Of a stretch of 64,000 bases of DNA, positions 21,622-64,000 are shown piece after piece; the stretch's first letter is position 1, and every line of letters starts with the position of its first letter. Both the position numbers and the translations under genes were made by a program. A model generated the notes under the pieces. That model had not been told where the DNA came from and ran no database searches. It worked only from the letters and a program-made list of their open reading frames with translations. This DNA is from Bispira polyomma. Lineage: Eukaryota. Location: assembly GCA_965649765.1 (NCBI GenBank), contig OZ287755.1, positions 36,456,001 to 36,520,000 on the forward strand. Reading direction: 5' to 3'.

Positions 21622-21911
21622 TTAGTTAAGTTAAAATTTTAGTGCAAAAACACCTTAGTGTTATACTGCACTATTAAAATTAATAAATACACTAACTAAA
21701 TATATACAAACAACATTAACATTAAACAAACGAAACAATGACTAGATCAGAGAATAAAATGCCAAAAATATAAAATATAACAAATAAATACAAAATATAA
21801 AGATAACAATACTACAAACAAGACTAGACTATAAAAAAACAAAGAAATCATAGAAAACACAATAAATTAACTCTTATTAACAGAATAAATTACTTAACTA
21901 TAGCTTAAAAC

Positions 21912-24900: not shown

Positions 24901-25387
24901 CTAATATATGCTCAATCTTTTCTCCTCTACTATCACAGTGATTTGAACCTTACAACTCATTATGGGCATTAAAGTCACCTATTAATAAAAATGGTTGTGG
25001 CAGTTCATTGACTAGATTATCTAAGTTTTTCTGTGTAACTGTACAACTAGGTGGAATATATATACAACATATAGTTATGGTTTTGTGTAGGGATACTTTA
25101 ACTGCTACGGCTTGTAACTGTGTAGTTAAGGAGATTACTTCATGTGGCACACCTTTTTTAACAAATAATGAGCAACCTCCAAATACTCTTCCATTAACTT
25201 CTGAAACACTAGTTTTGTAATAGTGATCAAAGCCTCTCAACTTGTAATTATCATTGTCTTTAAAATATGTTTCCTGCAAAGCTAAAATGTATGGACTAAA
25301 ATCAGAAATTAAATGTTTAATTTCTTCAAAATTTGGCTTATAGCCATGACAGTTCCACTGGATAATGTGTTTTTGGTTTGGTTTCAT
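21912..25387 (-). pseudogene. Nimb LINE ORF2 (endonuclease-RT-RNase H), broken into 24950-25387, 23957-24613 and 21912-23801
   Basis: ORF-track pieces are colinear, with stops/frameshifts and a deletion near 23910-23955. Confidence 0.9.
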
Positions 25388-25396
25388 TATTTAATT

Positions 25397-26624
25397 TTAT
25401 TTACAATTTTGACTCCGGGGTCTTCCTCTATTATTTTGTGGTGGTAGGTCAACCATCATTTCATGATCATCCTCAACATTTGAGTAAAGAGTATCTTGTT
25501 TATTATATTGTTCAATAAGAGCATTTGACCCTTTTGAATTTCTATTTCTATTGAGAATTACCTTACTCTGGTTATTTGTCACTTTGACTGATTCATTTTG
25601 TGATTTGGTTGCTTCAGTTTGACATGAAGATGTAACTTTGGTTAAAATTACTTTTGAATCCTTTTCATTTGTTGCTTGTGGTAATTTTTTGGGACTTTTT
25701 AATGTTTCTGGCCAAGTCATATCAGTTTTTTTGGAGCAAAGTGTCACAGATTTTGTTACTTTGGCATATGAAGTTTTTACATTATTAAATATTGATATTT
25801 GTTTCTTGGCTTCTGTATAAGATATACCTCTTTCAGTTTTGATTTTTTTTATTTCTTTTTCTTCTTTCCATTTTGGGCAAGTTTTGTCGGTAGCTGAATG
25901 ATTTCCCTCACAATTAATACACTTGGCATCATTTTCGCATTCATGTATATCTGTATGATTCTCACTACCACATTTTGGGCACACTTCTTTTCTTCTACAT
26001 GTATATTTTGTATGACCAAATTTTTGGCATCTGAAGCACCTCATTGGATTTGGAACAAACACTGACACAGGCACTCGCAAATAACCCACCCTGATGTATT
26101 TTGGTAGCACTTGGCATGCAAAAGTCAATATGAAAGTCCCAGTACGCCTTCTTTCGCCCTCTCGAAAAAATCGTTATTCGGTCCAACTTTACAACACCCT
26201 CAGATTGTAAACCTTCTAATATTTCATCATCTGCACATTCTTTAATATATGGACATCTTATCACTCCTTTCTTTTTATTCAAAGTATTGTGAGGGGTTAC
26301 GCTGATTGGTATAGAGTAGTCCATTGTCAAGTCCAATTTTGTTGTTTTCAAAAGTTTGTCACTTTGCTTTTCTTTATCAACCTCAACTAAAATATCTCCT
26401 GATCTTAGTTTTTTTATGTTGATAGGTTCAGTGCCCATTACAGATAAAATGGCCTTATTAACAGCAAAAGGTGAAAGTTTCAGTAGAGAATTTTCTGTAT
26501 CAGAACCTTGCAAAAGTAAAAATCGAGGCCAAGAACAAGCAATACCAGTTTCCAAAGTCATAAATCCTGGGTCATTCGTGGGTCGAGTCCTTTTTCTTCC
26601 ATCCGTTTGATTTTGTGATGCCAT
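25397..26624 (-). pseudogene. Nimb LINE ORF1 (nucleic-acid-binding gag-like protein), one frameshift near 26130-26170
   Basis: MASQNQ...KKLRSGDILVE...PHNTLN followed by CFRCQKFGH, CPKCGSENH and CINCEGNH knuckles. Confidence 0.88.
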
Positions 26625-27152
26625 GGTTAAATAGTTAATATTCACTGCCAATGCTCTCCACCCACACTTCGAGCCCAACAAGGGGATACCGAATTGTGTG
26701 GGGCTATGCCCAGCACACAGGTACCAGAGATACATTGGCAGTATACTCAAAGCACACTAAAAATGAACCTCAATTGACCTGTTAAGCAGCCGCCTTCTAG
26801 ATACTTCAAACAAAAGCACAAACCAGATACCAGCAGAATAAAACTAACAAAACAACGATATAAACATTCACCAACAACAAACCATCACTTAATTTGGAGC
26901 ACTAGGGCTTGGCACTACCAGCCGATTGGTTAAGCCAGGCCATCTTAACCATCCGTCTAAGTGAAATTGAGGCCAAAGCTATGTATTGCCTCCTCAATGC
27001 CGCAGCAAGGTATCGACTCAACAACCAGGACCCTCTCTTCCACTGACATGGACCGCAACCCACGGCAAACAGGTTGCCCCCAATTAGTCGCCTCTTACGA
27101 CACGCTGGAGGATACGTTGGGCCTATTCTACTTCCCCGGACTCACAGGGGGA

Positions 27153-30302: not shown

Positions 30303-30679
30303 TTTCAATTTTCTAAATAGCCTGTTCACAGGTGAAAACACAAATTCAATATGGAGGATAGCTATCCTAGCTTAGGGGTCACTAATAGCTAATGCTGTGA
30401 TTGGACAAGGCCCAGATGGACAGACAGTTGGATAATGCTATTGCATTCGCTAGGGATTAAGGTAGTGTGATAGAAAAAAGAGGTTGGACTGATCTAGCAG
30501 TCCCCTGGGGTGGACTTGCTATGCACAGTCCAATGGTGGTGTGAAAAGTTATAAGTTAATAAGTAAGTTTATTATAAGACAGTAAAAGATTGCATTTGAG
30601 GTTTTTATTTACATGTTAGCTTATGTACAGGTTGACAATCAAAGTCAGTTAAAATTTCAGGATGGAATTTTAAGCCCCA
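30303..30679 (-). repeat. Internal B1-A2 junction repeat
   Basis: A2 (223 bp) differs from A1 at 2 positions and directly abuts B1 at ATGCA|CAGTC. Confidence 0.95.
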
Positions 30680-30686
30680 AGCCCAA

Positions 30687-31660
30687 CTAAGAAGGAGGGA
30701 TAGCCGCAGCAAAGGTGAGAGGCACCACTGAAGCAGCTTGGGAGGTCTTCTGTAGGTAGGTCCATACAGCTGAAGACCTCCACAGGCCATGGGACATAAT
30801 ATTCTGCAGTGATACGTTTTTATTGAAAGCAAATGTGGCCCCCTACCTCCTAAATGTGTGGAACCCGTGTGAATGGTATGGAATGCCTATGTGTTCTAAG
30901 ACTCTCTGTAATGCGACTCTCACATGTGTCTCTATGACTGGGTAAAATGGTGGTGAGTTAACTGCAAACAGTGGTGCAGATGGAGGGAGAGGCCTAGACA
31001 AGATAAGCTGCTGTATAGCCCTTACTGGACATAAAATTTGGTTTTGAAGTGAAGGAATTTGTATAATGTGGGAGTCTGATTTGTTTTGAAGGTTCTTAGT
31101 CCATTTCAAGATGACATGGGCCCCAGGAGGGACAAAGATAATATCCTGTCTAAGAAAGTGCCTAGATGGGTCAAATGCTGCCCTAGAGTGAGAAGCCAGA
31201 TTGGAAAGTCTCAAGAAGCCGAAAAAGGCTAGAAGGAAAATAGCCCTAAAAAGTACTGGATCCTGCAATATCTGACAAGCTTGGGATATCTGTGTTAACT
31301 GATGTATATCAAACAATCCCTTAGGTCTAGGCCTGAAAGTAGAGTTGATGGTAATGCTTCTCGTAAATAAAGAAACAGAGTTGTGTGTAAAAGGAGCCAT
31401 ACTCCACTGTAATTTGTTAGCCATAAATTTAAGTGATGAGAGGTAATTGGCAATGACAGCCGGTGAAAGGCTATTCTGTGCTAAGTATTCTAAGAAAGCC
31501 AAAACTGATGAAACATTAATGTGTTTAATGCCAGCAACATGTAAGAAAGCTAAAAATGTCTTGAATTGGTTACTGTAAGCTGTAGTGGTCTTTGGTCGCA
31601 GTGCCAAGTCTATTCTGTTGCAGGCTGATTGAACAAGTGTATGAGTGGAACTGGCAGAAC
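30687..31660 (-). pseudogene. Tyrosine recombinase with one in-frame nonsense codon (30843-30845)
   Basis: AFFGFLRLSN, KWTK, CPV, HTFRR*GATFAF...HGLWRSSAVWTY. No ATG; begins at a TTTCAG acceptor. Confidence 0.92.
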
Positions 31661-31666
31661 CTGAAA

Positions 31667-34414
31667 TTACACAGATAAGGCCAGGTCAAAGTACCTTATA
31701 GGGACCTCATTCCATTTATAACAATTTTGTAATTTAACAGTTAGCTCTGCAGTAGGAGGTTTATCTGAAAATAGTCTAGAAAACGCATCTGCAATCACAT
31801 TATTTTTCCCTGAAATGTGTTGTATGTCAATTGTGATGTCATGTGTGGCTGCAAGCAGCCAGATATTCCTCAAACATGAGGGCAGAAAGTCATCCTTAGT
31901 TTTTTGTGAATTCACAACCAGTACTACGGCCATGTTGTCACAGTGAAACAAAACCCGTTGATGCGCCCACTTTAATGCCCATACACGCAACGCGAGAATG
32001 ATATTCAGCATCTCTAAGTGAACTATTGTCAACTCTCTGCCAAAAACATTGAAATATGGTGTAGCGTACACCTCATCTTTCCACACGCCTCCTAAACCGG
32101 TAAGGCAAGCGTCTAAATGTAACTCACTCATGTTTTGAATCATAGGATGGTCAATGAAAGTTACTCCGTTAAATGCCTGTAAGAACTGCTTGAACCACGC
32201 TAAGTCGTTCCGCATGTCTTGAGAAATAGCAAATTTCTTCTTACCCTCGTTGTTTCTAAATGCGTGAAGCAGTCTATTAATAAAAGTGCGTGCCGGCTTG
32301 ACGCATTTGTGCACATACAGAAGTTTCCCTAAGAGGGACTGAAACCGACTGCGCGTTATGAAGCGCCTGTTAAACACGTCGCACACACATTCAAGAATCT
32401 CTTCTATTTTCCCATGCTGGATGCTAATAGTACCAGCGACAGTGTCAATGTTAATACCCAAACAAGTAATGCTAGTACTAGGTGGGGTGCGTTTGTTGGC
32501 ATTCATGGGGAGACCTAAATAGTCTAGCAGTTTGGTCAAAATCTGAAAACCCCTGTGAGCCTCTACTCTATTGGAGACGCAAATGTAATCGTCGATGTAG
32601 CAGAACATATTGAAACCGTTTTTGCGCATGTATGACGCTATTGCGTCAGAGCAGCGTTGAAATGCCGCGCTGCCATGAATCCAGCCAAACGCCACCGCAG
32701 GATCTATGTAACTACCCTCTTTAAACTGGATTCCTAATTTTACAGCGTCGACAGGATCTACATGCAAATTACGGAAAGCACGAGCTACGTCGATTTTAAA
32801 CAATACCGGATCATCTGTGACTTTGACCGCACTAGTAATATCATCGATTGTAGGAAATTTCAGAATAAATTTTTTCCCATCAAACATATTCTTATCAACA
32901 TTCTCATTAAGCGAATTGCCTTGTGGGTATGAGAGGTTAAGAATTACCCTACGACTAGTAATGTCCTTGGGACGTGTGAGAAGTGGTGAACAATGGTAAT
33001 GTGAGGAGCTAACCTCCTTCACTGGGCCCAACATGGCACCCTTATTACTTTCTTTAACCAGATATTCTCTCACACTACTTGTGTGTTGGAGGGCAGAATA
33101 ATGATTGGTAACAGAGGCATTGTTAAGCATTTCTGGATTGGTGAGAGAAAGAGGAAAGCCGAATCTAATGTACTGACACAGCAACTGGTCAGGATAATCT
33201 TGGAAAACTTCATCCCATGCATCTGGATTAAGTCCTGACACCAGGGGAACCCTTGCTTGTCTATAATTGGGAAGTGCAGTGTCTCTGATAACAGAAGCCA
33301 CTTGCAGCATGTCTTCTACTGTTTCAATTCTCTTAACAGGTTTGTCAGGACCTATGAATGTGAATGCTGTTGAGGAAAGTGCCAAGAAACCCATGGTTTT
33401 CTCGGGGTCATTAAAGTCCTTAATTTCTTTGTACAAATCCTTGTTTGCTCGAACACTATCAACCATTTGAGTGAATTCATTGCTCGACGAGTTCATGTAT
33501 ATTTTATCACAAATCAGACTGTTTACAGTCTCACTTGGTTTTTGTGTACTTACATTTGACAAGTCTGCACAATTGTCTGACTTATGGCAATTGTCAGGTG
33601 TTTCATCTTCACTGTCACTAATAAGTGCATCTACTAACCTGGTCATGTATTCAGTATAATCGAAACCCAACTGTTTGAAACAGGCATTATCTCTTTCGAA
33701 ATAATAAAATGTATCAGCAGCTTGCTTGATCACAGCCTGGTGATGAGTTTCCACATTAGTATTACTGGTAGTATTTGAAGAAACAGCCTGAACCTGGATT
33801 ATGGTTTGAAAGGTTTGAATAATACAAAGGTTTTGGCTAGGTGGAAATTCAACACGAGCATATAGACACTTGGCAGCAGTCATGTCATAAAACATGTGGA
33901 AATAACCTGAGAATTTTCCATCCCTATCCCTAATGTAAACAATTGGGGCCAAATTTTGAATTTCCCCACAAAAAGTTTTCCAATTGGTAACTGATACCTG
34001 ACACGTGTGTGCCTCTTTGTTCCAAGCTGGTGAATTAGCATAGTGACTGCTCCCATTTGAAATGCAGGCCTCAGTGCTCCTGTCCCATCTATGGTGACCC
34101 GACTGGGTCCTGCTCTGAAATTGAATACATTCATTTACATTCTTGGTTTCATACTGGTAGTTGTCGCCAGCATCTACTGAAACTGCAAAATTATTAAAGA
34201 CATCATTATCAACAAAGTTCACCTTTATATCAGTGTTGAATACATTATTGACAAACCTTGTACTATCTGACATTATCATCTGCTGATAATCATTACTATT
34301 GGAACTTTGCACAATTGTATTAATTTCAGACATGCTTCTGTCGCAATAACCTAATTCCCTGTTTTTGTCCTTTATATTAAACTCTTTTACAAATTTACTG
34401 TTACCGTTCATCAT
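31667..34414 (-). CDS. Reverse transcriptase-RNase H polyprotein with long N-terminal extension
   Basis: Intact 915-aa ORF with KIDVARAFR, FGW, CYIDDY, HLDACLTGLGG, HLEML, CDN and NVIADAFSR. Confidence 0.93.
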   Translation of the reverse strand: MMNGNSKFVKEFNIKDKNRELGYCDRSMSEINTIVQSSNSNDYQQMIMSDSTRFVNNVFNTDIKVNFVDNDVFNNFAVSVDAGDNYQYETKNVNECIQFQSRTQSGHHRWDRSTEACISNGSSHYANSPAWNKEAHTCQVSVTNWKTFCGEIQNLAPIVYIRDRDGKFSGYFHMFYDMTAAKCLYARVEFPPSQNLCIIQTFQTIIQVQAVSSNTTSNTNVETHHQAVIKQAADTFYYFERDNACFKQLGFDYTEYMTRLVDALISDSEDETPDNCHKSDNCADLSNVSTQKPSETVNSLICDKIYMNSSSNEFTQMVDSVRANKDLYKEIKDFNDPEKTMGFLALSSTAFTFIGPDKPVKRIETVEDMLQVASVIRDTALPNYRQARVPLVSGLNPDAWDEVFQDYPDQLLCQYIRFGFPLSLTNPEMLNNASVTNHYSALQHTSSVREYLVKESNKGAMLGPVKEVSSSHYHCSPLLTRPKDITSRRVILNLSYPQGNSLNENVDKNMFDGKKFILKFPTIDDITSAVKVTDDPVLFKIDVARAFRNLHVDPVDAVKLGIQFKEGSYIDPAVAFGWIHGSAAFQRCSDAIASYMRKNGFNMFCYIDDYICVSNRVEAHRGFQILTKLLDYLGLPMNANKRTPPSTSITCLGINIDTVAGTISIQHGKIEEILECVCDVFNRRFITRSRFQSLLGKLLYVHKCVKPARTFINRLLHAFRNNEGKKKFAISQDMRNDLAWFKQFLQAFNGVTFIDHPMIQNMSELHLDACLTGLGGVWKDEVYATPYFNVFGRELTIVHLEMLNIILALRVWALKWAHQRVLFHCDNMAVVLVVNSQKTKDDFLPSCLRNIWLLAATHDITIDIQHISGKNNVIADAFSRLFSDKPPTAELTVKLQNCYKWNEVPIRYFDLALSV

Positions 34415-34468
34415 TGAATTACCCTTATCACTACCTAATGTTCGTCCAACTGGTTGTGAATCGTGGCC

Positions 34469-35701
34469 CTAGATGTTACCTTGTTGTTTGTCTGGCTGTT
34501 TACTTACATTCGCTTTAAAGCATTTGAACTCTGGGTGCGACGCGTCCTTTCCTAATGTCTTATTACAATACCAACATACATGACGATAATTGCCATGATC
34601 CGCCTTGTGAGTACACTTGCCATTATTAAACAGCTTACAGATGGATTTACTATCTGAAGAAGCCCCATTAGCCAAGTTACTGCCATTGTTGCCTACCATA
34701 GCCATCTGGGAGGCACTGATGCGATTCAGTGCCCACTGAGTGTTGTCCTGCCAGGACAGCCTGCCTTCCTCGATCTCATGCATACTGACAGCCCAGGCTG
34801 TCCTGACAGCAGGCCACGGAAGTGTGGCTGCATCCCGTAGTGCGTGTACCACTTGGTTCACCATAGCTTTCATTGTTGCCGGATCACTTACTTGTAGCGA
34901 GTTGGCCAGCTGGCCAGCCGCCCACTGCGGCAACGTGAGGTCGTCAAAGACTGGCCTTCGGCGAGTCGATCCCCCACCCCAACCTTCGTTAGACCATCTG
35001 AGTTGGGGATCAGCTAAAGTAATATCTGTGGAGTTATAACGACCAGACTCCTGCCTGATTGAGTGCTTACCCTGGACTAGACCCCTCTGGGCCAAGGCTT
35101 CGTAGTCAGCCAGCTGCCTGGTAACGGCCGCCTGCACGTTTGGAAAAGATCTTAATGCATCGAGACTGGGGACAATGCCATCTGTGTTGTAACCCTGACC
35201 TGTTGGTGGTTGCATCATAGGTTGAGCCAGCGGCTGCGCGACCCCGTTGTACCTGGGAGGGGGAAGAAGTAACGAATAACCCTCGTGTCTCTGTTCGACC
35301 ACCGTACCATCCCTCATGGTGTGTAATGGAGAATTAGCGGGTGTAACTGTCTGTTTGTCCTCTACGAGTTGCAATCGCCGGGTTATGTTAGCGTTGGAGG
35401 TCTCCAGACCACGCAGGATGGAAAGAACCTCGGACATGCTTTGTGACTCGACTTGTGACTGGGGTACGGCCTGAGATGAGAGCCCGGCTTGGCTAGATGA
35501 TCCATTTGAACTGGTCAATAACTGAGAATCAATAAGAGGACACGCAGTGTCGGCAATGACTGTTCTATGTATTTCTGATTGATCGTGAGTATTAGTAGTA
35601 GTTACCTGACCAGTACCCCTTTTCTTGGCTGTACTAGTTGAAGTTGTCTTTGTGGTCTGTTTCTTGCTGCTTAACACAGGAGTTGCTTTTGTTTTCCCCA
35701 T
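34469..35701 (-). CDS. Gag-like ORF1 with C-terminal Cys/His finger
   Basis: First ATG at 35701 (MGKTK). C-terminal CKLFNNGKC...H...HVCWYC...H...C finger as seen in YR-element gag proteins. Confidence 0.85.
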   Translation of the reverse strand: MGKTKATPVLSSKKQTTKTTSTSTAKKRGTGQVTTTNTHDQSEIHRTVIADTACPLIDSQLLTSSNGSSSQAGLSSQAVPQSQVESQSMSEVLSILRGLETSNANITRRLQLVEDKQTVTPANSPLHTMRDGTVVEQRHEGYSLLLPPPRYNGVAQPLAQPMMQPPTGQGYNTDGIVPSLDALRSFPNVQAAVTRQLADYEALAQRGLVQGKHSIRQESGRYNSTDITLADPQLRWSNEGWGGGSTRRRPVFDDLTLPQWAAGQLANSLQVSDPATMKAMVNQVVHALRDAATLPWPAVRTAWAVSMHEIEEGRLSWQDNTQWALNRISASQMAMVGNNGSNLANGASSDSKSICKLFNNGKCTHKADHGNYRHVCWYCNKTLGKDASHPEFKCFKANVSKQPDKQQGNI

Positions 35702-35795
35702 TGCACACAACAATCACTAGTTCCAGTACCACGTCAGTTAATAAAAAGAAGTAAAATATAAATAAAACCAATTCAGTGTAAATACGTGGTTAAAA

Positions 35796-36018
35796 TTTCA
35801 ATTTTCTAAATATCCTGTTCACAGGTGAAAACACAAATTCAATATGGAGGATAGCTATCCTAGCTTAGGGGTCACTAATAGCTAATGCTGTGATTGGACA
35901 AGGCCCAGATGGACAGACAGTTGGATAATGCTATTGCATTCGCTAGGGATTAAGGTAGTGTGATAGAAAAAGGAGGTTGGACTGATCTAGCAGTCCCCTG
36001 GGGTGGACTTGCTATGCA
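35796..36018 (-). repeat. Split direct repeat A1 (5' terminal; contains CCAAT box)
   Basis: Near-identical to A2. GTCCAATCACAGC on the sense strand. Confidence 0.93.
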
Positions 36019-37882: not shown

Positions 37883-40219
37883 TTACAAAACACACACTAT
37901 AAATACAATCAAATAGGGCAGAATTGTTATGTAATCTATCTGGGTTTCTGGCACCTTAGCTACGATCCGACAGGGCCCCCCACTTCCATCTTGAATCTTC
38001 ATGGGAAATACATAGACCTGGCTTCCGACTGGGGGCAGTCTCCCCAGGTTGTTAACATTTTCCATACCATAGATGTTGTGCTTACTAAGTATTCTATGAA
38101 CCATCATGTTGGAGGTCTGACCGAAATCAACGGACGGTGTGTCTACTCCAACAGCAGTAAGGTTTCTGTACCTTACCAACCATACCACCAGGTCTGGATG
38201 TAAGCCTGGAAAGTGAAGTTCAGAAGAATTATCTTTGTTGCCAAGGACCATTTCTTCATTAGGCCAATGTCGATCCCATCCAGAATACATGAAAAGCATG
38301 GCCCCTTTGGTTATTTTTCCGTGAACTTGTTCAAATTTGGTAATGTCGGACAAGTCCAACCGGGCATCCAAATCACTCTTGGCTTTTCTGCTGATGTCAA
38401 TAACAACAGCATCCCCATGGAAACTCTCCACCGGAATTTCATGCATCTTCATCTTGCCTTTTGCAAAATGAACTGGTGCATCACAGTGAGTTCCTCCATG
38501 TTCACCCAGTGCTATTCTGTTGGTCTCATACCTGTAAAGTTTTGAAGATATTTTTATTTAGACAAATACCAGTGAGTGGTAATAGAGGTTTTTAAAAACA
38601 ACAATAATTTCACAGGTGCATGGATCAGTATATATTCCATAATAGAATGCTACCTGTAAAATACAGATACAATAGTAGACAATTTATATGTCCAGTAATC
38701 TCAAGTGTTAGTATGTTAAGTATGACAGTTTAAATGTCCAGTAATCTCAAGTGTTAGTATGTTAACATACTTCAGCAAATGGGTTGTGGCATAAATTTAT
38801 TAATATCACTAATCGAAAAATGATTTACAGTATCATATAACTGTACAAATTTATTACAATATCACCGTCAGTAAAAAGTCCATAAAGTAACCATCAATTA
38901 ATGAATTATCAAAAGATCGAGTACAACACTAAGTCTGCGCTTCCTTTCAGCATGTTTTTTCAGCAGATTTGCATCAGATCCGATCAGACGTCGGCCGACG
39001 TCTGTTTGGCCAACAGTTTTTATCTGTCAGGGAGGGAAAAAATCAGGAGGACTGGCCGATTTTGAAACAAAAATGTCTGCAAAAATGCTATCATAGGTAT
39101 AGTTTCCATCCTTTATATACTCAATATTCGTCAGATGTTTACGTTGAAAATGGCATGAGAAAGGTTATTTTATTGTCATTACTGTGTTTTTTCCCCACCA
39201 AGATCCGTTAGGAAACGGCTCAGATATTTAAGTTTATAGATGGGTACCCCATTCAACTTTCCCTTCTACAGTGAATAATACATCACAGTGACGTCATAAT
39301 GACGTCAGTTTTGTAGCTACGTCATAGCTTACACACCAGGAAGTGAAAATGGGTACCCTTACTTAACTGTTTATATCTTAGCCGTTTCACAACGAATTTT
39401 GATGGGAAGAGAAGCACAACATTTACAATAAAATAGGCTTTCTTCTGCGATTTCTCAAGTCACCATCTGACGAATTTTGAGTGTATATCTGTTGAAAGGA
39501 AGCACAACATCAGCCGACGTCGGATCGGATCGGACACCTTCAAATCGGCCGACATCGGAATGTGCTGAAAGGAAGTGTAGACTCAGATCACCATAAACAT
39601 TATTTTAAATGTCCATAAGATGAACATTACTTAGTTAGCAAAATATCTGATATCTGGTCCCGGTATCCGTCGCTAGTTTCATTTAGTAGGATAACTTCCT
39701 TGGGCAAGATGTGAACACAAGTTTGCCTAGTAGCTCGAATGACCTCTTAAAATGGCAGTGCTCTGTCACTGAGTAATACCTCTCGTGGCAGAATAAAGAT
39801 CCTTGGGGGCGTTGATAAATGGTCATTTTCAAGCAAGCCTCAACGCCCATAGTGGCTACCCATTACAAAAAAGAGCATTTGAAATAACCCTGTGTTGTAT
39901 AAATGCGCCACAGTAAATGTCCTATTTCATTTCGTGTCATATATATATATATATATATATGAATGTTTTGTTTATTTTATTTTCTTATTCATGAATTCAT
40001 TATATTTTGCCATATATCTATGGAAGTTGTTTCTTTTTTGGAATCATTTTTGTTTCATGTGCTCTTTAAAACAAACAGAATAATTAAAAAAACATTACAA
40101 ACTACATCAATTAATTCCAATTTCGGATGTGAACAGCAGGGATATACAATCAGTACAACACATGGTACTCCACATAAACAATGATACATCAGCTAATATT
40201 ACACACATCGGACAAACGT

Positions 40220-47190: not shown

Positions 47191-49842
47191 GTTTATTGTA
47201 GATTTGCAAACTCTGTCCACGTGAAGGATGCTATAGCCCTGAGGAGTAATATCTTTGGCCAGTTATTACGTCTAGCTTATCCTTAATGGTATAATCATGA
47301 ATCACAGGGTGTTTTGTTCCTGATATATCTAGCATGCATTAAACATAAACAACATAATTTATCATGTTTTATCAAGCCAATTTTCTACTAAATTAGATAA
47401 ACTACTTCCACTGACTTGCCTGTATTAGCTTTCCGCACACCTTATCAATTACCCCTAAAATATATCATATTTCTGATTTGAAGAAACCCTGTGCCTAAAA
47501 CCCTAACTGAGTCTGTTCTTTCTAGAATTCAATTTAATCAAATCGTTTCTATCATAGCAAAAGTTTTTCACACCTGGTTTGGCAAAGCACATAAAACGAG
47601 AAAATAAAACAGTGACCACAAGAAATAATTAACTATTTGATTTGTTTACATGAGATCAAACAAGATTAGATATTTGATATTTTCTGGACTTAAAACTTTT
47701 ACTTAAATTTGATCGGATTCTGGGTTAATATTCACTTGGATCAAGATCAGCTGTACTCTTAGCAAGGTGACCTCAGGTGATCATTCGGAATTCACAAAGC
47801 AAGAAAGAACTGAGTCACAATTTGACACAACTGTACCAAGTCTGAATTTAATCTCATCAACAAGAAACTCAAAATACGGTAGTTAACAGTTTAACTGTTA
47901 ACTAGTTTAAAGTCAATGCATGTCAGTGTGCATCTAATTAAGACTGCAATTAAGTTTAAGTATGTCAAAGCTTGAGGCTAATGCAACAAGTCAAGTCAGT
48001 GCAACAAACAGTGAAGCACATGCACCCAATTAGTATATTATCAAAACAACATCAAATCTTACCCGGTGTCAAACACCGGCTGATTAAAAGAACTCATCAG
48101 AAAAAAATGATTACCTTTTAGTTTAAAATTAGTAACTGATCCAGTTACAATTAGAATCATTATTAGTACCATTATTGAATATAAATGACCTGTGCTGCAG
48201 TCATTATTTATTTCTATGGTGCTAATGTTTCTTTAGACACCCTTGATCAGCTTAGAATGATAGGATAAGAAAGGGCTCTCACATTATATGATTAACAACA
48301 TTATCACCATTAGGGCTGCCAGACAATTTTTTCAATTATGTGGTAGCCTCACAGTCATATTGCATTGTATACATATATATAGATTCTTCAATTCCACCAA
48401 AACAGGCAGTGTAACATTTGACATCTTGTGTGTTGGACAAAACAGAAGTGGATAGTTGAAAAAAATATTATTTTTGAAACATTTGTTTCACTTAATAATA
48501 AGCACATCATTTGGGAGTTTTCTTTGTCCGTGGCAAGATATTAAACTTTTGGTAACATGAAATGAATATCTGTTGTGTATAGTTTTCATTTGTGAACACC
48601 CTAAACGCGGGAATGTAACCAAAAGGACTGTTACTATATCTTGGCTTTTCGTTAATTATCCGCTTTTTACAGTCATCGGTTGTGGTTATATTTCAGTCAT
48701 ATTGTACGGTAACAATGTTTGGAGGCATAGTTTACTTATAGGAAAGTAAATATAAAATTAATGTTAACACCTTAAATTTGTTTGCACACGAAAACGACTA
48801 TAAAGTGTAATTATGACAGTACTTTGCTAATTTAAGAACATCTTCACTGCAGCATCCTATTGAATAGCATTTATGACTATACTCGATTCCAATTTTTTTT
48901 AAATTACCAAATATTAAGAAACCTCAAAAGATAACCGCAAAGCGATGATTTAAAGCTATCAAAAGCTACATTTTGAAAAACACACCAAAAAATGCTAGAC
49001 CAAATGACCAATATGGCAAATGTGCATCTTCATATACACGAGAAATAAATAAATAATCTATAAAAAGTAACCAGTCTCTACGAGAATGAGACAACCCTTT
49101 GTCTATCTAATAAATACATGGCATAAGTACGGTCTGTAGTACACTTTATTGCGTAAGCTAGGCTCTCACCCAAAAGAACTACACATGCAACATCTACTCT
49201 TACATTAAATACAGTGGTAACAAAACAGACAATAGTACAGCGCCAAATATGCACACTTTAAATGAAAAAGGGGTGGTAGGGGGAAAGCATTTTAGTATGT
49301 TTATTGTTGGTTGATGACGAACACAATGTTAAACCAATTTGATTTTGGTGCAAACAGGTGGCCAGAATTAATCATTTCAGGTAACTTGGTCACAGTCACA
49401 AAAATACTAGTGAGGAACAGTGCACTTAGCTATATAGCTCTTGGGTGCCATGCCACACACGTGGACATTACTAAATGGTGTCATCCTTAAGCATCTGCCT
49501 CAAATTATGGTAATGATAGATATTAGTGCTGGTTGGCTGGAACTTCCGAGCTTTACGAAAAAAATTCCTTAAAAGGTGCCTTAAATAATGGTAGATAAAT
49601 ATGTTGAGTATAAATTTGAATTCAATACAACAATAATTTGAAACACATATTCACACTAAATTGTTATATTTTAGGAGAAAAAGGAATAGTTGAGGAAACA
49701 ACAAAGTTTGAGGGGAGGTTACCTTTGCCCTGAGAATTGGGATCAGATTAAATGCAATCAGGTATCATTAGCATATAACCTGAGCCTCTGAAAAGAAACC
49801 CCCTAAAACATCACAGAGATAGAAGACATACTGGTGACCAAG

Positions 49843-50814
49843 ATGGCCAACAACAGTACTATATTCCAGACAAATGCGACAGTGCAGCATGCTACCGCCA
49901 GTATATACCAAGATACTCTGACCGAACATATCTGCTATGGTACTGTCATTGTGTTATTTTATTTGTGGATCTATTTGGCCAATTTCCTATTGATAGCAGT
50001 TCTTTTGAAGTACAAACTTACCACCCCGGCAAATGCAGCTATTAGAATTGTCCTTGCCCTGAGTGATATTTTACTCTGTTCCTTAACAGCCTATTCACTC
50101 GTCCCTCTCTGGTTCAAGGAGAGTCTTTTCAATGTAGAAGTTTGCTCCATCATCACTGATATCTGTCAGAGTATCGTATACTCTTCCTTTATGGTCAGTG
50201 CAGCACTTGCTGTGGAAAGGTATACCTACATTGTGTACCCACTGAGGTATCAGTCATTAACCAAACTCAATTTGATTAAAGGTTTTTTTCTGGTCTACTT
50301 TACTGCAGTACTGGTCTACTTTGTGGTCATGGGGCAAATACATGGCCATGCATTCAAGACCTCTCGCTTTTCCTGCCCTGCTAGTGGTATCAGCACTTTG
50401 CACCTAGTCACTCGCGTTGGTCTATTATTCGGAATACCGGGAGCAGGTATCGCCTATGTTTTGAATGAAGTAAAAAAGCTTCAGTCTAGGCAAGTATCTT
50501 CAGAGGCAAAGGAAATCAAAGAAATTGTGGCTAAGTCACTGAGGTTAATATTACTGGTTTCTGGAACATTTATTATTACTGCAGTTCCTACGTGTACCAT
50601 AAAGATCATTCTAGAGTCTATGGAAAAGGGGAATTATATCATCATTGATCACAGCCCAGGCCTTGTCACTCTAATGCGAATAAATGTTCTAATATTTGGG
50701 TTTGTATCTTCAGCAGCAAACCCATTGATCCAGATATTTGTAGAAAGAGATCTATTTACTGGAGTGCTGAAACTATTTGGCAAAACTGTGGATTTCTCTT
50801 GGCAAAAGAAATAA
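49843..50814 (+). CDS. Class A (rhodopsin-like) GPCR with uninterrupted CDS, chemoreceptor-like
   Basis: About seven hydrophobic segments, N-terminal NNS/NAT sequons, LALSD, AVERYTYIVYPLRY and ANPLIQ. Upstream acceptor TTTTAG at about 49674. Confidence 0.88.
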   Translation: MANNSTIFQTNATVQHATASIYQDTLTEHICYGTVIVLFYLWIYLANFLLIAVLLKYKLTTPANAAIRIVLALSDILLCSLTAYSLVPLWFKESLFNVEVCSIITDICQSIVYSSFMVSAALAVERYTYIVYPLRYQSLTKLNLIKGFFLVYFTAVLVYFVVMGQIHGHAFKTSRFSCPASGISTLHLVTRVGLLFGIPGAGIAYVLNEVKKLQSRQVSSEAKEIKEIVAKSLRLILLVSGTFIITAVPTCTIKIILESMEKGNYIIIDHSPGLVTLMRINVLIFGFVSSAANPLIQIFVERDLFTGVLKLFGKTVDFSWQKK

Positions 50815-53800: not shown

Positions 53801-54689
53801 ACATTTTGGCAGTGACAGTGTTCATATCAATATTGAATAAAATTGTTGTACGAGTCAATGTATCTTATATTGCCTAATACAGTTTAGTTTCAGTTGGAGA
53901 ATTGTATTTCCACCCTATTAAAATTGTTGGCTTCTCCAGACAATACATTCAGAAGTGACTTATCGCAAAACAGTGAAACATTGATAAATTTATTATATAC
54001 CACCACTTGAGTCGTCAAGGTGAAAAATACTTACTTGATTGCTTCAACCTTTTTTTCTCAAATTTGATCTAATCATAATATCATCATTATCCTTGATCCT
54101 GAATATGGCCCAAGACTGGATCAACATCAGGTAAACTCTGAGCCGAATTACTCAGCTGATCTTTTAAATCAATTTCACAATGCAATTATGCAACTGGACC
54201 AAGTCTGAATTAAATTTCAAGAACATGAAACTCCACATATAAAAGCAGCTTTTAGTTCAAGTATATTGACTGTAAATTAGTTTAAATTTCATGTTTGTCA
54301 GTATGTTGATATTTTAAATACATATAAATTAACCAGATCCATAAGAGGTTTTATATGTGAGAATGGTGCACATTGAAATTTGATAATAATACTAGATTAT
54401 ATTTACTCTGACCAATTTCCAATGTGTTCGATTCGAGTCTAGTTTGAGCCCTTCAGCACTCAAGTTTACAACCCCAACAAGAGACTTTTTGCAGAATGTT
54501 CTTTCATCATGAACGTAAAAGTTATAAAACATGTAAACAACAGAAACAACTTGGCTCTGCTGTAAACTTCTAAAGAGGCTTGTTACTGCTGGGATTCTAT
54601 CCTTGGTTGTCATTGATCTTGAGATTAACAGTACACTAACAGTTGACCTAAAGGGGAAAACCTGGTAGCTCGAGTGTTTAATGCTCAGA

Positions 54690-56608
54690 TAAACACGGAT
54701 ATTACACCATTAAATTACCGTGGCATAAGTCTTCTTTCATGTATTGCAAAAGTTTATAGTGGTTTTCTTAACAATAGAATTGTTAAGTTTTTGGATGATA
54801 CTAATACTATTGTTGAGGAACAAAATGGGTTTAGGCATGGACGATCATGTGAAGAACACATTTCCACATTAACATCTATAATTAAGAACAGAATGAATGA
54901 TAATACAGACACATTTGTATGTTTTATTGACATGAGTAAAGCCTTTGACTGGGTGGATAGAAATTTATTATTTTATAAACTGCTAAAGTGTAATATCACT
55001 GGAAAAATATACAATGCTGTTAAGTCCTTATACGCCAACACAACATCCTGCATTAAATTAAATAATTATCTATCAAATTGGTTTGTTACTGATAGTGGGG
55101 TTCGACAAGGTGATACCCTATCACCTACACTGTTTGGTATATTTGTAAATGATTTGGCAGTAGAATTAAACAAGCTGAACCTCGGTATTAAAGTAGGAAA
55201 TGTTAATATATCGGTACTTTTATATGCAGATGATATTGCAGTCATAGCAGACAATGAAATATGTCTTCAAGAAATGTTAAACCTTATATATACATGATGT
55301 GATAAATGGAAATTAAGTATAAATACCTCAAAAAACTGAAATTGTTCACTTTAGGAAAACAAGAAAAAGGCCAACAAAGAATAAATTTGTCATAGGTAAA
55401 AATCATATAGAAGTAGTTAACTGTTATAAATACTTAGGTGTTTTACTGGATGACCATCTGAACTTCAAAAAGTGTGAACAAATTATGTCTGAAGCAGCTG
55501 GAAGAGCATTTGGTGGAATTGTGTCTAAGATAAAACAAATTAAATATGTGGGTTTCAATGTATTTGAAAAATTATGCGAGACGTGTTTTCCCAATAACGA
55601 ATTACAACTCAGCAGTGTGGAGTTATTGTGATGATAAATATGGTAACAAGCTACAATTACGTATAATGAGATATTATTTTGGTGTTCATAATAAGGCCCC
55701 AATACCTACTATTATGGGTGAGGCTGCATGGATTCCAATCAAGTATCAAAGATATTTAAGTATCAAAGATATTCAAATATGTGTCGTTTTTGGAATCACT
55801 TAATACAGTTAGATAACAATAGAATTCCAAAACAATTGTTATTATATGAAATGCAATGTGACAAGTCTACCTGTTTCAATTGGGTGTGCAAATTTAGAAA
55901 TATAATGTCTCTATTTGGAATTAATGATATTACTCAAGATACTAAGTTAGATATAAATCATATAAAAGGTCAAATAAAAGACCATATTGAATCTACATGG
56001 AGAGTTAACTTAAGCTGTAAGCCTAAATTAAGAGTTTACAAGAAATTTAAATGCAATTTTGAGATTGAAAATTACGTAAAATGGAATATGTCAAAATATC
56101 AAAGAAGTTTAACTGCCCAATTACGTACCGATATTACCGCTTGCTATTGAAACCGGTAGATATACAAATACTCCTGTTAAAGACAGAAAATGTTTCTCGG
56201 GTAAAGATAAAGTAGAAGATGAATATCATTTTGTTTGTGAATGTGACTTATACTCCATGCAAAGATTACAGTTGTACCAAGTATTGCAAAAAGAAATAAA
56301 TGATTTCAGTTTAATTTCAGAAGAAGAAAGATTTATAAAAATTATGCAACTAAATTCTAGACCTCTACATATCTATATTGAAAAAGCATGGAATATAAGA
56401 AAAGCTGAAGTTTATTCCTAAAAGTAATTAATGATTATATTTACTCTGTGTTATGCATATCACCACACATTATTGATTGTATTAGTTTAAAGTGACTTAT
56501 AAGCTCTCTGGTGGGCTGGGTGTATTGTATCTGTTCTACATTTATTGTATGTTGTTTTGGTTCATACACATGTCACTATAATAAATAAATTGAATTGAAT
56601 TGAATTGA
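54690..56608 (+). mobile_element. 5'-truncated RTE-X-like LINE (RT plus C-terminal Zn motif), degenerate
   Basis: NYRGISLLS, EEQNGFR, DMSKAFD, GVRQGDTLSP, LLYADD, IETGRY...EDEYHF and a (TGAAT)n tail. Confidence 0.9.
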
Positions 56609-57843: not shown

Positions 57844-59340
57844 TAGGTTGTAGTTATTATTGATAGTTACATTGTATTTTACACCGTCTTTTTTCATTTT
57901 TTTGTCGTTTATTGTGAGGTTGTTTTGTTTAAATGACATTCCATGTATTAGGTAGCATTATACAATATACTGATCGAATTGAAAGATGTTTTTACAATGA
58001 AGAAGTTTGTTATAGTTAGCTCTTTAGATTTTCTCTCCATCTGTTTTATAACTTCAGGATGTCCATTTACACCCCTCACCAATGCCCATGCTAGGATTAA
58101 ATCCACGTTAGGTTGGGTTTGCAGTTGTTCCTTCTCCAGTGCAGTAAGTGGAGGATAGTTAGAAGCCATATCTGCATTGAAAATCAAATATACTCTTTAC
58201 CAATTGGTTAGCTCAAATATTTAGAGTGGGGTATGTACATAAGGCACTCGTATAAGTCTTTACAAAGTTGCATGAGCCCATTATGGTTCTGTCACTCTGA
58301 TTAATGTCTATTACATGTATTAGGTTTAAATATTTCTTACAATTAGTCCTTTACTATAGCAAGTTATTTCTTATGTGAACACTTGCTTGTTATATATATA
58401 TGTATATATATATATATATAAATATATAACTGTATAGTATCCTAAAACGATAGCTCTAGCAAAGAAACAAGAATCCAGAAAATCTTTAACAGCCATTCCT
58501 TAATGAATACTGCCTTGACTGAAATGTAATTTTATTCCAAAATGAATGTTAATGCTAGTTTGACAGGTGTTCATACAGACATTTTGATTGGTAACTATCA
58601 CAATATTTTCAAGCTTTCTCATTGACCTAAGACTAGGACTACTGCTTCTTATTTCATTCCTTTGAGAAGAAAGCTCATTGGTCTGTGGTTATACTAAGGT
58701 TTATTGATCATTTTAGAGCAAATGGAAATGGCCGATTGAGAGCTTCTATGCTGACCTATTTTCATTAAATTTGTCATAGTAGGGTAGTAACATAGTGGTG
58801 TAGTGACCTGGTTTATACAGGGAACAATCTTGAGCAACTAGTACGCAGTCCACCACCTCGGACACCCCCACCCCCCATACAAAGTGCACTGGTAAGGGAC
58901 TTAACTCAAATCACATGGGTACTGGGTTCTAATGTCATGGGGGTAGTGTTTTAGAGACTAGATTCTTGAGTATCTGGAGTGATTTGTTTTTTCAAGGTCC
59001 ATGTAAATTAGACTTTGGATCAGAACCATTCAAATTAATTAACTACATTGGAAAGTCTTATCAAAAGATCTTGGTAGAGAAACAAAAATAATAGCTGGTT
59101 GGATAATAAAGGTTCTACTGCATATATTAGGTCAAAGTATATTTCCTATTTCTGCGTTATAAGTAGTGTTTTTTATATATAAGCAGAAATTAAAAGTCTT
59201 ACAGCAAATGGTCTTGTTGCTCACCAGGCTCAAGATTGAAAAAATGCCATGCCATTTATTAGGTACCAAACATTTTGGGAGAGAAAGAAAATGTGGTCGG
59301 ATAATAGAGGTTCTACTGTATATGTTAGGTCAAAGTATAG

Positions 59341-60664
59341 TTTGAGGAGCTGAAACAGGAAGTGATTTCCCTAAATCATGATTTACCTTTATCAGGGCAT
59401 ATGGGGATTACTAAAACTATAGCTCGGACTAAACAGTCATTTATGTGGTATAACATGAAGAAAGATGTGGAATTATTTGTCAAGTCTTGTGCAGGGTGTA
59501 ATAAAAATAAGAAAGCTTCAGTAAAAGCTAAACCAAATTTAGGTCAATTTCATGCAGGCTCACCATTAGAGATAGTACACATTGATATATTGGGTCCATT
59601 TACACCGAGTGCAAAGGGAAACCAGTATGCACTGATGATAGTGGATCAATTTACTAAGTGGTTGGAATGTTTTCCTCTCCCACATCAGTCAGCGGAAGAG
59701 GTAGCAAGGTGTGTAATCGATGGATTTATTGCTAGATTGGGATATCCACTAGAGATACACACTGATCAAGGTAGAAACTTTGATGGTAATCTCTTTGCTT
59801 CTGTTTGTGAGTTGTTGCATATCGTCAAGAAAAGGACAACACCATATCGACCGTGCTCGAATGGTTAGGTAGAGAGGTATAACCGGACACTGTTGCAGTT
59901 AATAAGATGTTTCTTGTAAGGTAATCAACAGACCTGGGACGAACACTTGCAGCAGTTGGCTGGGGCAATAAGATCCACAGTTAATAGAAACATTGGTTTT
60001 ACTCCAAACTTGTTGATGTTAGGCTGTGAGGTGATCTTGTCGGTTAATTTAATGCTTGGTAAAATTGATGAATGCAATAAGCAGACCCCCGCAGGGTATG
60101 TTTCCAAGTTAAAATCAATTCTTTGTAATGTAGATACTCTAGCATGAGAAACCCTGGGATCTGCACAAGTTTAACAGAAGAAGGACTACGATTTACGTCT
60201 CAGAGAGAACACTTATGAAGTAGGTGATTTAGTCTACATGCTATATTCAGCCAGAAAAATCGCTCAGAGCAGTAAATTGCAACAAATCTGGAATGGTCCT
60301 TTCATTGTGACAAAGGTGTTAACACCAATCCTTTTTGAAGTGACGGGAAGGAAAAAACCACTTGTACATCATGACAGGATAAAACCCTGTTGTGATCGCA
60401 GCGTACCGATATGGTTGCGAGGTAAGAGAAATCTGGTGTTGAGTAATCAAACTATAGGCTATGAGGACACCGAAAGTTCATGCGAGTATGAAGACTGAAA
60501 TCTTGATCAATTATTTTATTGATCGGCCAAAAGCTGAAATCGAGGTCAACTTGAACCCTGTGGTTTCGAAAGATGAAGGTAAGAGTGAAGCAATTAAGCC
60601 ATCAACTACAAGAGTCGGCCGTGAGAGTAAAAGGCCGAGACATTTGGCAGATTACTATAGTTAA
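59341..60664 (+). pseudogene. Gypsy integrase (stops/frameshift)
   Basis: HDLPLSGH...CAGC, VHIDILGP, HTDQGRNF, NG*VERYN, WNGPF. Confidence 0.92.
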
Positions 60665-60770
60665 GACTGTTAGTTAAGTGCATGCGTTTTGGAAAAAGGT
60701 TTGGAGGCTACTAATCAATTCTAGCTCCTTTGTATTAAACTGATATGGGTTATTTGCTTCTCCTTTGCAG

Positions 60771-63198
60771 ATGGACAGGGGTAGGTCATCCTACCGTGGC
60801 AGGGGATCCCGAGGTAGGGATGAAAATCCGGACAGAAGGTCTGGATACAGAGGCAGTAGAAGTCCTTCAACCGATTTCTACAGGGGTGACCAGTATAGGC
60901 GAGACAAAGATAGAGGTCAGCCAAGGGATTTCTATGGTCGTAGAGACGGGCCATATTACTATGACAGAAGACGAAGGTCTCACCCATGAGCGAAGAAGTC
61001 AAGACACTGATTTCTACGCATGTTATCAATATACAAGAGATTACGACCAAAGTATCACCAGGGATGAGGATGAATCCGTCATCATTACATTGATGGATAT
61101 TTACAGTGAGTTGAGAGTGGAAGTAATTAGGGCCAATGTTGATCACCCTGAGAATAGAAGACGGCCTTTTGATAAGGGAATCCTGCTTCAAAGGTGTTTA
61201 GAGGATCTGAGGGGTCTAACAACCGGCGAAGAACTGAAAGGGCCAGACCCTCTGCTACCGCAGGAATACCTCCACAGGAGTCAGCCTCTAGTGGAGCTAG
61301 TCGCACAGGAGAATCTTCACGGGAGACAACCTGTAGTGGAGTACGTCACACAGGAGAATCTTCACAAGAGATAACCTCTAGTGGAGCTCACCGTTCAGCA
61401 TGTAGACCCTCTGCTACCGCAGGAGCACCTCCGCGTGAGGTCACCTTTAGCGAAGCACAGCACGCATCAGGAGTTGTTACCACCACACGGGTTTCCCTTG
61501 ACAAGGGAAGTAAGGACACCACTCGGAGCGTGAGGGGTAGGTCACCGAAGTTATTCTCTGGTGTTAAAGCTAGCTCGCAAAAGATGACAAAGGAGGCACC
61601 TTAACAGGGAGTCTCGCAGAGTCCGGAAAGGAAAAAGAAGGAACATTATGAGTGTGTGGAGGTTACTTACAAGGCTACGCAGTAAGCGAAGTATATATCC
61701 TCTTGAGACTATGACAAGAGAATCGCGAGGCATTCAGAATCTAGGGAATCTAGGAGTCATGCATTCGCTTCAAGGAGAGAAACAGGAGTGGCACAAACCA
61801 AATCTACTGTTGCTTCTGCTGGGGTAAGTCGTAAACAAAGTCAGGAATCCGGATCTGGACAGAGCACAGCGGTGGTTCGAACCCATGCTGTTCCTGTGAA
61901 GGCAACTGGAAAAGGGAAAAGGGCAACACCTAATACCACCTGTTTCATGAAGGGTTGCCGGGTCATGAACAGACACATGAAGAAGCATGTTGTGAGGAGG
62001 CACGTTCCGACAGAGGCCTATAGCAAGACCGGGGATTTACCACCATGTTGGAAGATTTGCTGATGAGAATCGCAAGTTACCTGGGGTGTAGGAATCTGAA
62101 GGAGTTGCTGCAGAAAGTGATGTTGCTGAACTTTTATCCGTCGCCTCTCAGGACGTACAAGATATCCGAAGCTGATGTTGAGTTGATGAACCAATTCAAC
62201 ATATGGTTACATTCGGAAGGGCTTCAAGAAACACCGACTATAAGACCACCAAATATGATAGCCTCTCTGGTACAGTGGCGTGCGTTAGCGCATCTAATCA
62301 ATTGTACAGGAGAGAACAGGTTCAGCGCAAAGGACATCAAGCCGAAGAAGATAGTTGTTACCTGTGCTGAGGGAGGGAGTGAAAAAGGTGAACCCGAGGT
62401 AGAGATCCAGTTGGCAAGCAGTGAAAACACTCAGAGTCTGAGTGATGAATCCAAACTTGATAGTTCTCCAGAAAGACAGAGCAGTGCCTCGATGTGCAAA
62501 CAGAACTTTAGATCGACATCCGACGTGTTAAAAACATTGAAGTGGATAAAGAAGAGGGTGAGGTTGTGGACAGTTTGTCACCAGAAAGGCAAGAGGTGAT
62601 ATCAAAGAGGGAAGAAGAGGAAATGGAAGTGGAAGTAAGGACGCCCGAGGGAGAGCGAAAGGAAGTAGAGATAAAGACGCCCGAGGAAGAGCCAAAGGAA
62701 ATAGGGGCGCAGGCAGATGAGCCTCAGGAAGTTGTAATGGAAAAGCCATCAGAGGAACAGTCAGAAGAGCCAGCCTTTTCTACTGCTTCCCAGGAAGAGG
62801 CCTCTGGGGAAACGAACTTAACTGAAGTTAGTCAACCACCCAAGACTGAGCCGGTGGTGAAACCCAAAGTGTTAAAACTGAGACCAGCAGCTTTGGGAGT
62901 ACCATACCTTCCGGAAGAGCGTGAAATAAGATTGGTCCGATTGGTGAGAAATTCACAGAAGATATCTTTTGTGGGTTCACATTTCCACCACAATCGTCTT
63001 CAGCAAAAGAATGGGTATGAGGATCTGGATGAAATATTGGCCCAAGGGCCGATACCGCAAACCCCTATGAAGCTGGAAGCTGCAGTGGCCAATTTTATAG
63101 ACGAAGTGCCGGCCAGGAGAGTAAGACAAGCTCTGTCCAAAGATTCAAGACTGTTTTTTACCTTCGGGGTGCATCCCAAACGGGTGCACAGGGGGTGA
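60771..63198 (+). pseudogene. Extra ORF of the Gypsy element: Arg/Ser-rich N-terminus, C2H2-like finger, Glu-rich linker, TatD-like N-terminal half (frameshifted)
   Basis: Polypyrimidine TGCAG|ATG start, CFMKGC...HVVRRH, and FVGSHFH...VANF...FFTFGVHP. Confidence 0.7.
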
Positions 63199-63200
63199 CC

Positions 63201-63310
63201 AGCAGGTTTACCACTTGCTGGGATATTCCGAGGAAGGGGCATTTAAGCAGGTTTACCACTTGCTGGGACACTTCATAGAAAAGAGGTTTTAGCAGGTTCA
63301 CCACTTGCTG
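63201..63310 (+). repeat. Three 20-bp hairpin repeats at 45-bp period
   Basis: AGCAGGTT(T/C)ACCACTTGCTG at 63201, 63246 and 63291. Confidence 0.9.
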
Positions 63311-63421
63311 AAATAGTGTGCTCGAAGGATAAGCAGATTGAAACACCTGCTCCCAGTAATTTGAAGTAAGGGTATTAAACTCCTTTACCATAGGATCGAA
63401 TCCTTTGTTGACAGGGAAGAG

Positions 63422-63742
63422 TGTGGTGATCTTCGGATTACGAGGAACTCGATCTTGACAAGGAAAACTCTCGCTTTGGCTGTAGAAGGTGAAGGTCGCC
63501 GGAAAGCTGCGCAGTACGGCAGATCGTGAATTGACAGCCATGTTGAAGGACATAATTTATAGAACCGGGAGTTTTGAATAGTGAACTGTGAGAGATATCT
63601 AGGCAGATATAAAGACAGTATATTAAGAAGATATATACATTAGTGTGTTGCTGTATCACGAAGATAGTTGGTGTACAGTTACACCGGAAGACCAAAGTGG
63701 ACTGCTGGAGTTCATATAACAGTAAGTTCACTTCAATATACA
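63422..63742 (+). repeat. Putative 3' LTR
   Basis: Starts TGT right after the PPT and ends ATACA. No second LTR is available to confirm. Confidence 0.6.
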
Positions 63743-63747
63743 AGGAC

Positions 63748-64000
63748 TACCTGTGAAATAAATTCCCAAGACTATATGTCAGCTCTAAAGGCAAAAATGT
63801 ATCAGATTGGACCGGTAAAATAAATTCATCTACATATATGCATGGTATTTGCATTGGAAAGATAGATGTTTTAATTGTGGAAAATACAAATTTTACCTGT
63901 AAAATAATTAAGTTCCCCAGAGTATATGTCAGCTCTATAGGTGAAAATGTGTCAAATTTGACCTGTGAAATAAATTCCTCTACATATATGCATGGTGTTT
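63748..64000. repeat. Tandem satellite-like repeat (~147-bp period with internal subrepeat)
   Basis: ACCTGT(G/A)AAATAA...TATATGTCAGCTCTA and TCTACATATATGCATGGT recur. Confidence 0.75.

Follow-up and report, generated by a model that had tools for sequence, protein, structure and literature searches.

What does a Ty3/Gypsy retrotransposon carry in the place of an envelope gene when the protein encoded there appears to end in a TatD nuclease, and what might such an enzyme do for the element? The question is raised by a locus in Bispira polyomma (assembly GCA_965649765.1, contig OZ287755.1, positions 36,456,001 to 36,520,000 of the forward strand; this 64,000-nucleotide stretch is called the window and all coordinates are its own), where a first-pass annotation had proposed a spliced third open reading frame (ORF3) behind a Gypsy integrase. 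The element, at 59341-63743, belongs to a diverse lineage of animal Ty3/Gypsy elements; it is decayed and truncated at its 5' end, and this copy is dead. As to the identity of ORF3, we hold with high confidence that the N-terminus it encodes is disordered and RNA-binding-like, and is followed by a zinc-finger/helical module specific to the lineage, a linker, and a Group II TatD nuclease. The features are as follows.

59341..60664, + strand: 3' end of Gypsy pol, with integrase zinc domain, core, C-terminal part and basic tail (Pfam; interrupted by stops and frame changes)
60740..60770, + strand: predicted splice acceptor, with branch-like CTGAT (60740-60744), pyrimidine tract and TGCAG (60766-60770) before the ATG at 60771 (sequence signals)
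60771..63198, + strand: ORF3, broken: its first stop falls at codon 73, the frame changes several times, and the 3' part is lost (tblastn with P0013, P0027 and P0044)
60771..60989, + strand: RG/RS/RD-rich low-complexity N-terminus (same MDRGRSSY start in P0007, P0013 and P0016)
61066..61218, + strand: small conserved block of ~50 aa (45% identity to P0027 117-167, E 2e-8)
61273..61388, + strand: 45-bp tandem repeats in the first disordered linker (repeat analysis)
61941..62320, + strand: family-defining C-x4-C-x9-H-x4-H zinc-finger-like motif and helical domain (PPN..SLxxWR), with a frame break near 62043
62400..62925, + strand: acidic disordered linker with 36-bp repeats at 62614-62704
62962..63195, + strand: N-terminal quarter of a TatD barrel of Group II (HxH), cut off after GVHP and with a substitution at the first motif position
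63201..63310, + strand: 45-bp tandem repeats, lying after the ORF3 break and before the polypurine tract
63410..63421, + strand: polypurine tract (PPT; L002 has a purine tract at the same place)
63422..63743, + strand: 3' LTR, with the same TGTGGTG start as L002 and a right end that is not fixed (sequence comparison)

Pfam places Integrase_H2C2 (E 5e-18), rve (E 3e-14) and Integrase_p58_C (E 3e-6) within 59341-60495, and this integrase is 47% identical over 396 aa, with 5 stops, to residues 698-1092 of the pol protein of L002, an intact relative on a distant contig. The match to L002 pol begins only at 59347 and is not preceded by any RT or RNaseH match; RT, RNaseH, gag and a 5' LTR were not found in the 64-kb window. 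A short high-copy repeat, duplicated at 59103-59144 and 59301-59342, abuts the element's 5' break. The basic tail of the integrase runs to a stop at 60664, and in the 106 nt between this stop and the ORF3 ATG the CTGAT, the pyrimidine tract and the TGCAG reported by the first-pass annotation are all present, with the ATG directly following. ORF3 ends at 63196-63198, upstream of the PPT and of the TG at 63422, and thus lies inside the element, as had been claimed. The Ty3/Gypsy order of a PPT followed by a TG-starting 3' LTR is seen both in the window (63410-63422) and in L002, and a second LTR copy was not found within the 64-kb window. A 150-bp repeat follows the LTR from about 63756 (63756-64000). 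Contigs from sequencing runs cover 30 of 30 window bins, with the integrase and ORF3 at several times the depth of the flanks (a depth that is no copy number and carries no weight here, from runs that are possibly the window's own source); no contig bridging integrase and ORF3 was among the pieces listed from these runs.

Broken as it is, the window's ORF3 is collinear with the intact protein P0013 over four segments in three frames (tblastn E 1e-70, 3e-50 and 2e-32), and its landmarks (the RG/RS-rich start at 60771, CFMKGC at 61941, ISFVGSHFH at 62962, GVHP at 63166, and the stop) lie where they had been annotated. Some details needed correction: repeats given as 42 bp have a measured period of 45 (61273-61388), and the zinc-finger motif, present at 61941, is spaced C-x4-C-x9-H-x4-H and not CFMKGC-x10-H-x4-H. 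The ~50-aa block had no informative Pfam match in the 7 fragments and relatives scanned. Its match to P0013 runs to about residue 759, within a TatD domain that spans 685-961, so that about three quarters of the barrel is gone; the decay had been recognised correctly, with the loss put at half. What is left of the TatD domain retains only the two HxH histidines, the other ligands having been lost with the missing part, and is 76% identical to P0007 and 54-57% identical to P0008-P0010. By itself this piece has no Pfam TatD match at E<=1 and reaches E. coli YcfH only at E=0.78 in a PDB search, and the TatD identification consequently rests on the relatives. An Atlas search with the window fragment alone ranked a TatD cluster third at 0.91, which is a lead only.

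Intact relatives supply what the window has lost. A search with the 90-aa TatD fragment yielded 9 proteins at 54-76% identity, of which P0007 starts with MDRGRSSYRGR, as does the window's ATG frame. The cluster of P0007 (30 members) and a second one (42 members) contain intact proteins of 957-966 aa with a C-terminal PF01026 domain. In almost every case the domain covers the whole profile (positions 1-253, E about 1e-36 to 1e-38, 124-133 bits against a curated cut-off of 27). The TatD assignment of the first-pass annotation is thus borne out by complete domains in full-length relatives, though not by the window fragment taken alone.

The family extends well beyond these clusters. When 1.84 billion representatives were searched with a profile, 198 matches were obtained at E<=1e-30. 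The 150 of these that were listed, together with cluster mates, L001 (a second metagenomic locus) and L002, make up 168 rows. A full TatD domain is present in 113/168 rows and, among the matches listed, 91 of these have at least 150 aa before it. The zinc-finger/helical module occurs in 84 of these 91 (cluster mates included; among the matches listed). Of the seven rows without it, one is a named TATDN2, two are mollusc host proteins, two are cluster mates falling in the TATDN2 group, one is a zinc-knuckle form, and one belongs to the element group. The module is found in none of 123 host-set rows, and is absent from 120 host TATDN2 rows as well. An Atlas search for the module gave no usable match, and fold searches were filled by the barrel. 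Sequences are diverse, with 22-44% identity to the first row within alignment A2, and P0013 and P0044 are 71% identical in the TatD domain and 29% in the linker. TatD is the only strong Pfam family in the ORF3 relatives, and no pol domain was fused to ORF3 in the 57 long matches scanned. The viral and prokaryotic collections searched yielded no element-type locus, and the zinc-finger/helical profile had no match in the plus-strand ORFs read in 28 loci from them. A basic cluster precedes the zinc finger in 25/65 element rows (counted without a control).

Several variants were seen along the way. Two element-type ORF3 proteins (P0125 and P0099) have an additional N-terminal NADAR domain (E 1e-21 and 9e-24) before the zinc-finger module and TatD, and P0064, of 1483 aa, has RS-type repeats, the same small block and the zinc-finger/helical module, with no TatD domain. 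In 13/82 element rows and 0/120 host rows, the first 60 residues include an acidic motif, F-x-P-D-Y or ELDYD (shuffle mean 0.11; the pattern was picked after seeing the sequences), which is not in the window's family.

The seven metal and catalytic residues of the active site (H-x-H, E, H, H, E and D) are kept in 82/84 element-type domains, the two exceptions being one sequence counted twice. Since intact and very diverse relatives keep this active site, the element probably uses its TatD nuclease. Modelling indicates a TIM-barrel amidohydrolase fold for the TatD of the intact relatives: the predicted model of P0081 (pLDDT 94.5, pTM 0.92) has a barrel that superposes on the solved TatD 6l25_A with Z 33.0 and an rmsd of 2.0 A over 253 aligned residues. 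A single-sequence model of P0016 reached a pLDDT of only 34.6.

Is ORF3 tied to the Gypsy pol in other copies? A metagenome scan covering 27/64 parts gave 6 loci, 4 grouping with bacterial rows and 2 of element type (L001 and L002). In L002, an open pol with RVT_1, RT_RNaseH and integrase (in the order RT-RNaseH-integrase) is followed by 137 nt that end in TTCTAG and then GATG, so that a YAG stands 1 nt before the ATG of a 591-aa ORF3 with the zinc-finger/helical module and a TatD domain (E 6e-41). Beyond ORF3 come a purine tract, an LTR starting TGTGGTG (the one LTR seen) and a PBS-like TGGCG. The first-pass annotation had asked that other copies join the TatD segment to this integrase and LTR and hold an open frame with a complete TatD between them, and L002 provides both, intact, between integrase and PPT/LTR. 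In L001, 14 codons resembling an integrase tail are followed by 73 nt to the ORF3 ATG, with TTTTACAG 7 nt before it. Under a strict acceptor test (YAG within 1 nt of the ATG and at least 10 of 12 upstream pyrimidines), 5/2560 window ATGs pass; the window's ORF3 and that of L002 do so, while the L001 acceptor passes a loose form only (background 220/2560 window ATGs). The layout of pol end, acceptor and ORF3 fits all three element-type loci with DNA, L001 weakly, with only its 14-codon presumed integrase tail. The window and L002 share the slot, the acceptor and the LTR start despite 47% integrase and about 27% TatD identity. From these signals we infer that ORF3 is made from a spliced subgenomic RNA, as is reported to be typical of ORF3s (PMC5408684, available text). 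The frame in L001 (119-1747, equal to P0124) is the only element-type TatD in an open frame with two active-site histidines replaced (by Y and V).

Where did the nuclease come from? We favour the reading that it is most like animal TATDN2, to which tree, profile scores and signature residues all point. In a tree of 58 rows picked from larger sets (29 element, 22 TATDN2-type and 7 bacterial, without TATDN1/3 and non-animal TATDN2), element rows form one group (99/97) and TATDN2-type rows another (100/99), the two joined against the bacterial rows (99/98), and a FastTree of 154 rows agrees. With the element profile, each of the 120 TATDN2 rows reaches at least 223 bits, compared with 177 for YcfH, 113 for a solved TATDN3, 94 for TATDN1, and at most 175 for 25 viral-contig TatDs. 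The first histidine of H-x-H-C-F is found in 72/84 element, 120/120 host and 0/7 bacterial rows, and the cysteine of F/Y-C-x-P in 51/84, 120/120 and 0/7, respectively. Searches of solved structures put the bacterial YcfH at the top, and their matches included no TATDN2 chain. AU tests rejected neither a grouping of the elements with bacterial YcfH-type TatD (p=0.20) nor their nesting with mollusc TATDN2 (p=0.074), and so neither donor nor age is fixed. On balance, capture from TATDN2 is a likely origin, in which we place good but not full confidence. Five TATDN2-group proteins (P0303, P0323, P0153, P0190 and P0259) have CCHC zinc knuckles; the cluster of a 345-aa zinc-knuckle form counts 246 members, among them one named from the coral Porites. 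These proteins could be a second mobile TATDN2 form, and three rows of the host set, which have zinc knuckles, may be mobile as well.

In view of this probable kinship, what could the enzyme be doing? According to the available text of the reports, human TATDN2 is an RNA 3' exonuclease that acts on R-loops, has little DNase activity, also cuts hairpin RNA, shows minimal activity on a plain RNA:DNA duplex, and requires its disordered N-terminus for binding (PMC10711561), and medaka tatdn2 is germ-cell specific, its loss raising R-loops (PMC12709183). The term 'DNase', used by the first-pass annotation for the TatD family, may therefore name the wrong activity for ORF3. The RNA specificity need not carry over to ORF3, since the element domains have diverged and TatD paralogues differ in substrate. 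The reading that we favour is that ORF3, expressed from a spliced subgenomic RNA and copying the TATDN2 plan with a zinc-finger/helical module of its own, would act inside the cell, probably in the nucleus, as a metal-dependent 3'-5' nuclease on structured or hybrid RNA such as R-loops and nascent transcripts at element loci, which would help transcription of the element and, possibly, its escape from RNA-guided silencing. We hold this mechanism, a nuclear accessory RNase on the element's own RNA and RNA:DNA hybrids, only tentatively when it is judged alone, and give element identity and nuclear-RNase mechanism jointly something short of an even chance. A more specific scenario is that an old animal Gypsy lineage acquired TATDN2, the germline R-loop RNase, joined it to a zinc-finger targeting module of its own, and would strip nascent RNA or R-loops from its own loci to block piRNA-guided co-transcriptional silencing; taken as a whole, this scenario is unlikely.

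ORF3 might instead be a replication cofactor of the particle or pre-integration complex, which as a 3'-5' exonuclease or AP endonuclease on DNA would trim or clean cDNA ends, primers and abasic sites. We consider this somewhat unlikely. TATDN1 and TATDN3 are reported to be AP endonucleases and 3' exonucleases on ssDNA, and E. coli TatD, YcfH and YjjV to have AP-endonuclease activity (PMC10085689, available text), whereas human TATDN2 has the slight activity on DNA and plain RNA:DNA duplex noted above (PMC10711561). The RG/RS-rich N-terminus could bind element RNA, and two relatives (P0125 and P0099) have NADAR, yet the L002 pol retains its own RNase H and ORF3 is fused to pol domains in 0/57 long matches. 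The NADAR domain removes ADP-ribose from DNA. Also counting against a role in cDNA processing, to our knowledge most Gypsy elements replicate without such a gene.

It is unlikely, in our estimate, that ORF3 works in trans in the cytoplasm as a suppressor, breaking down small RNAs, the precursors of these or nucleic acid that triggers immunity, and not hybrids at element loci. LTR elements did take 3'-5' RNA exonucleases into the ORF3 slot before (the DEDDy enzymes of rotifer Juno and Vesta, PMC5408684, available text), and hairpin RNA is a reported substrate of human TATDN2 (PMC10711561); the zinc-finger module and the basic clusters, the latter a weak sign counted without a control, suggest nuclear targeting instead.

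The TatD gene might also do nothing for the element, being either a passenger or a host TATDN2 retrocopy next to it; this idea is largely refuted and, to us, very improbable. The window copy is dead, DNA context comes from three element-type loci only, and rotifer ORF3s are reported to vary neutrally within a genome (PMC5408684, available text), but slot, acceptor and LTR start persist at 47% integrase and about 27% TatD identity, the active site is kept in 82/84 domains, none of the 123 host-set rows has the fused module, and P0013 and P0044 differ far less in TatD (71% identity) than in the linker (29%). An env-like entry protein has a negligible probability, for in spite of the env position behind a predicted splice acceptor no 19-residue window exceeds a hydrophobicity of 1.43 in six full-length relatives, 1.9 is reached in 3/82 element rows, and TatD is the only strong Pfam family. 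As a candidate, an errantivirus-type env was rejected, there being no transmembrane anchor and no fusion-protein homology.

We draw a distinction between the element nuclease and its nearest known counterparts. In errantiviruses and gypsy, the env ORF3 lies between pol and the PPT with an acceptor directly before its start. The ORF3 described here shares that position and acceptor, but has no envelope features and supplies its own ATG after the acceptor. Like host TATDN2, it has a C-terminal Group II (HxH) TatD behind a long disordered N-terminus, with all metal ligands and the H-x-H-C-F and F/Y-C-x-P signatures; it differs in residing in an LTR element as a single open frame, in evolving faster, and in its extra module absent from host rows. 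Within the literature covered, the closest published case is the DEDDy 3'-5' exonuclease ORF3 of the bdelloid rotifer LTR retrotransposons Juno and Vesta, the activity of which is untested there (PMC5408684, available text). As far as that text goes, both cases put a non-env enzyme with intact catalytic residues and no transmembrane domain in the post-pol ORF3 slot, with a role at RNA 3' ends or in silencing being proposed; here, however, the fold is a TatD TIM-barrel and not an RNase D-like DEDDy fold, and the barrel is joined to long disordered regions and a zinc-finger/helical module in a large and very diverse family. A literature search of listings and abstract starts, with subscription journals, Repbase reports and supplements outside its scope, found no report of TatD in a retrotransposon, and 'TatD' occurs 0 times in PMC6338049.

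In animal LTR retrotransposons, an enzyme can be assigned to few of the accessory genes other than env, and among the 3'-5' nucleases in the ORF3 slot TatD would be the second fold after the DEDDy exonucleases. TatD is intact across dozens of clusters below 50% identity, which points to selection on some stage in the life of the element. For the closest host enzyme the substrate and the catalytic residues have been published, so that the stage served by ORF3 is directly testable with purified natural protein, and the family supplies many natural TATDN2-like domains for structure work. Should the reading of TATDN2 capture and piRNA evasion be true, it would mean that an animal LTR retrotransposon encodes an enzyme with which it counters host defence.

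The window holds other features, assigned by eye. Long ORFs like gag, RT/RNase H and a tyrosine recombinase at 30303-36018 (- strand) look DIRS/Ngaro-like; direct repeats of 223 nt bound this element, and a 154-nt repeat occurs in identical form at 29273 and 30526. LINE-like fragments on both strands (endonuclease, RT and RNase H-like ORFs) occupy 19326-26756 and 54647-56421. A 335-aa open frame at 49807-50814 (+ strand) resembles a seven-transmembrane receptor, and a 224-aa frame at 37883-38557 (- strand) resembles a cyclase/kynurenine formamidase-type enzyme.
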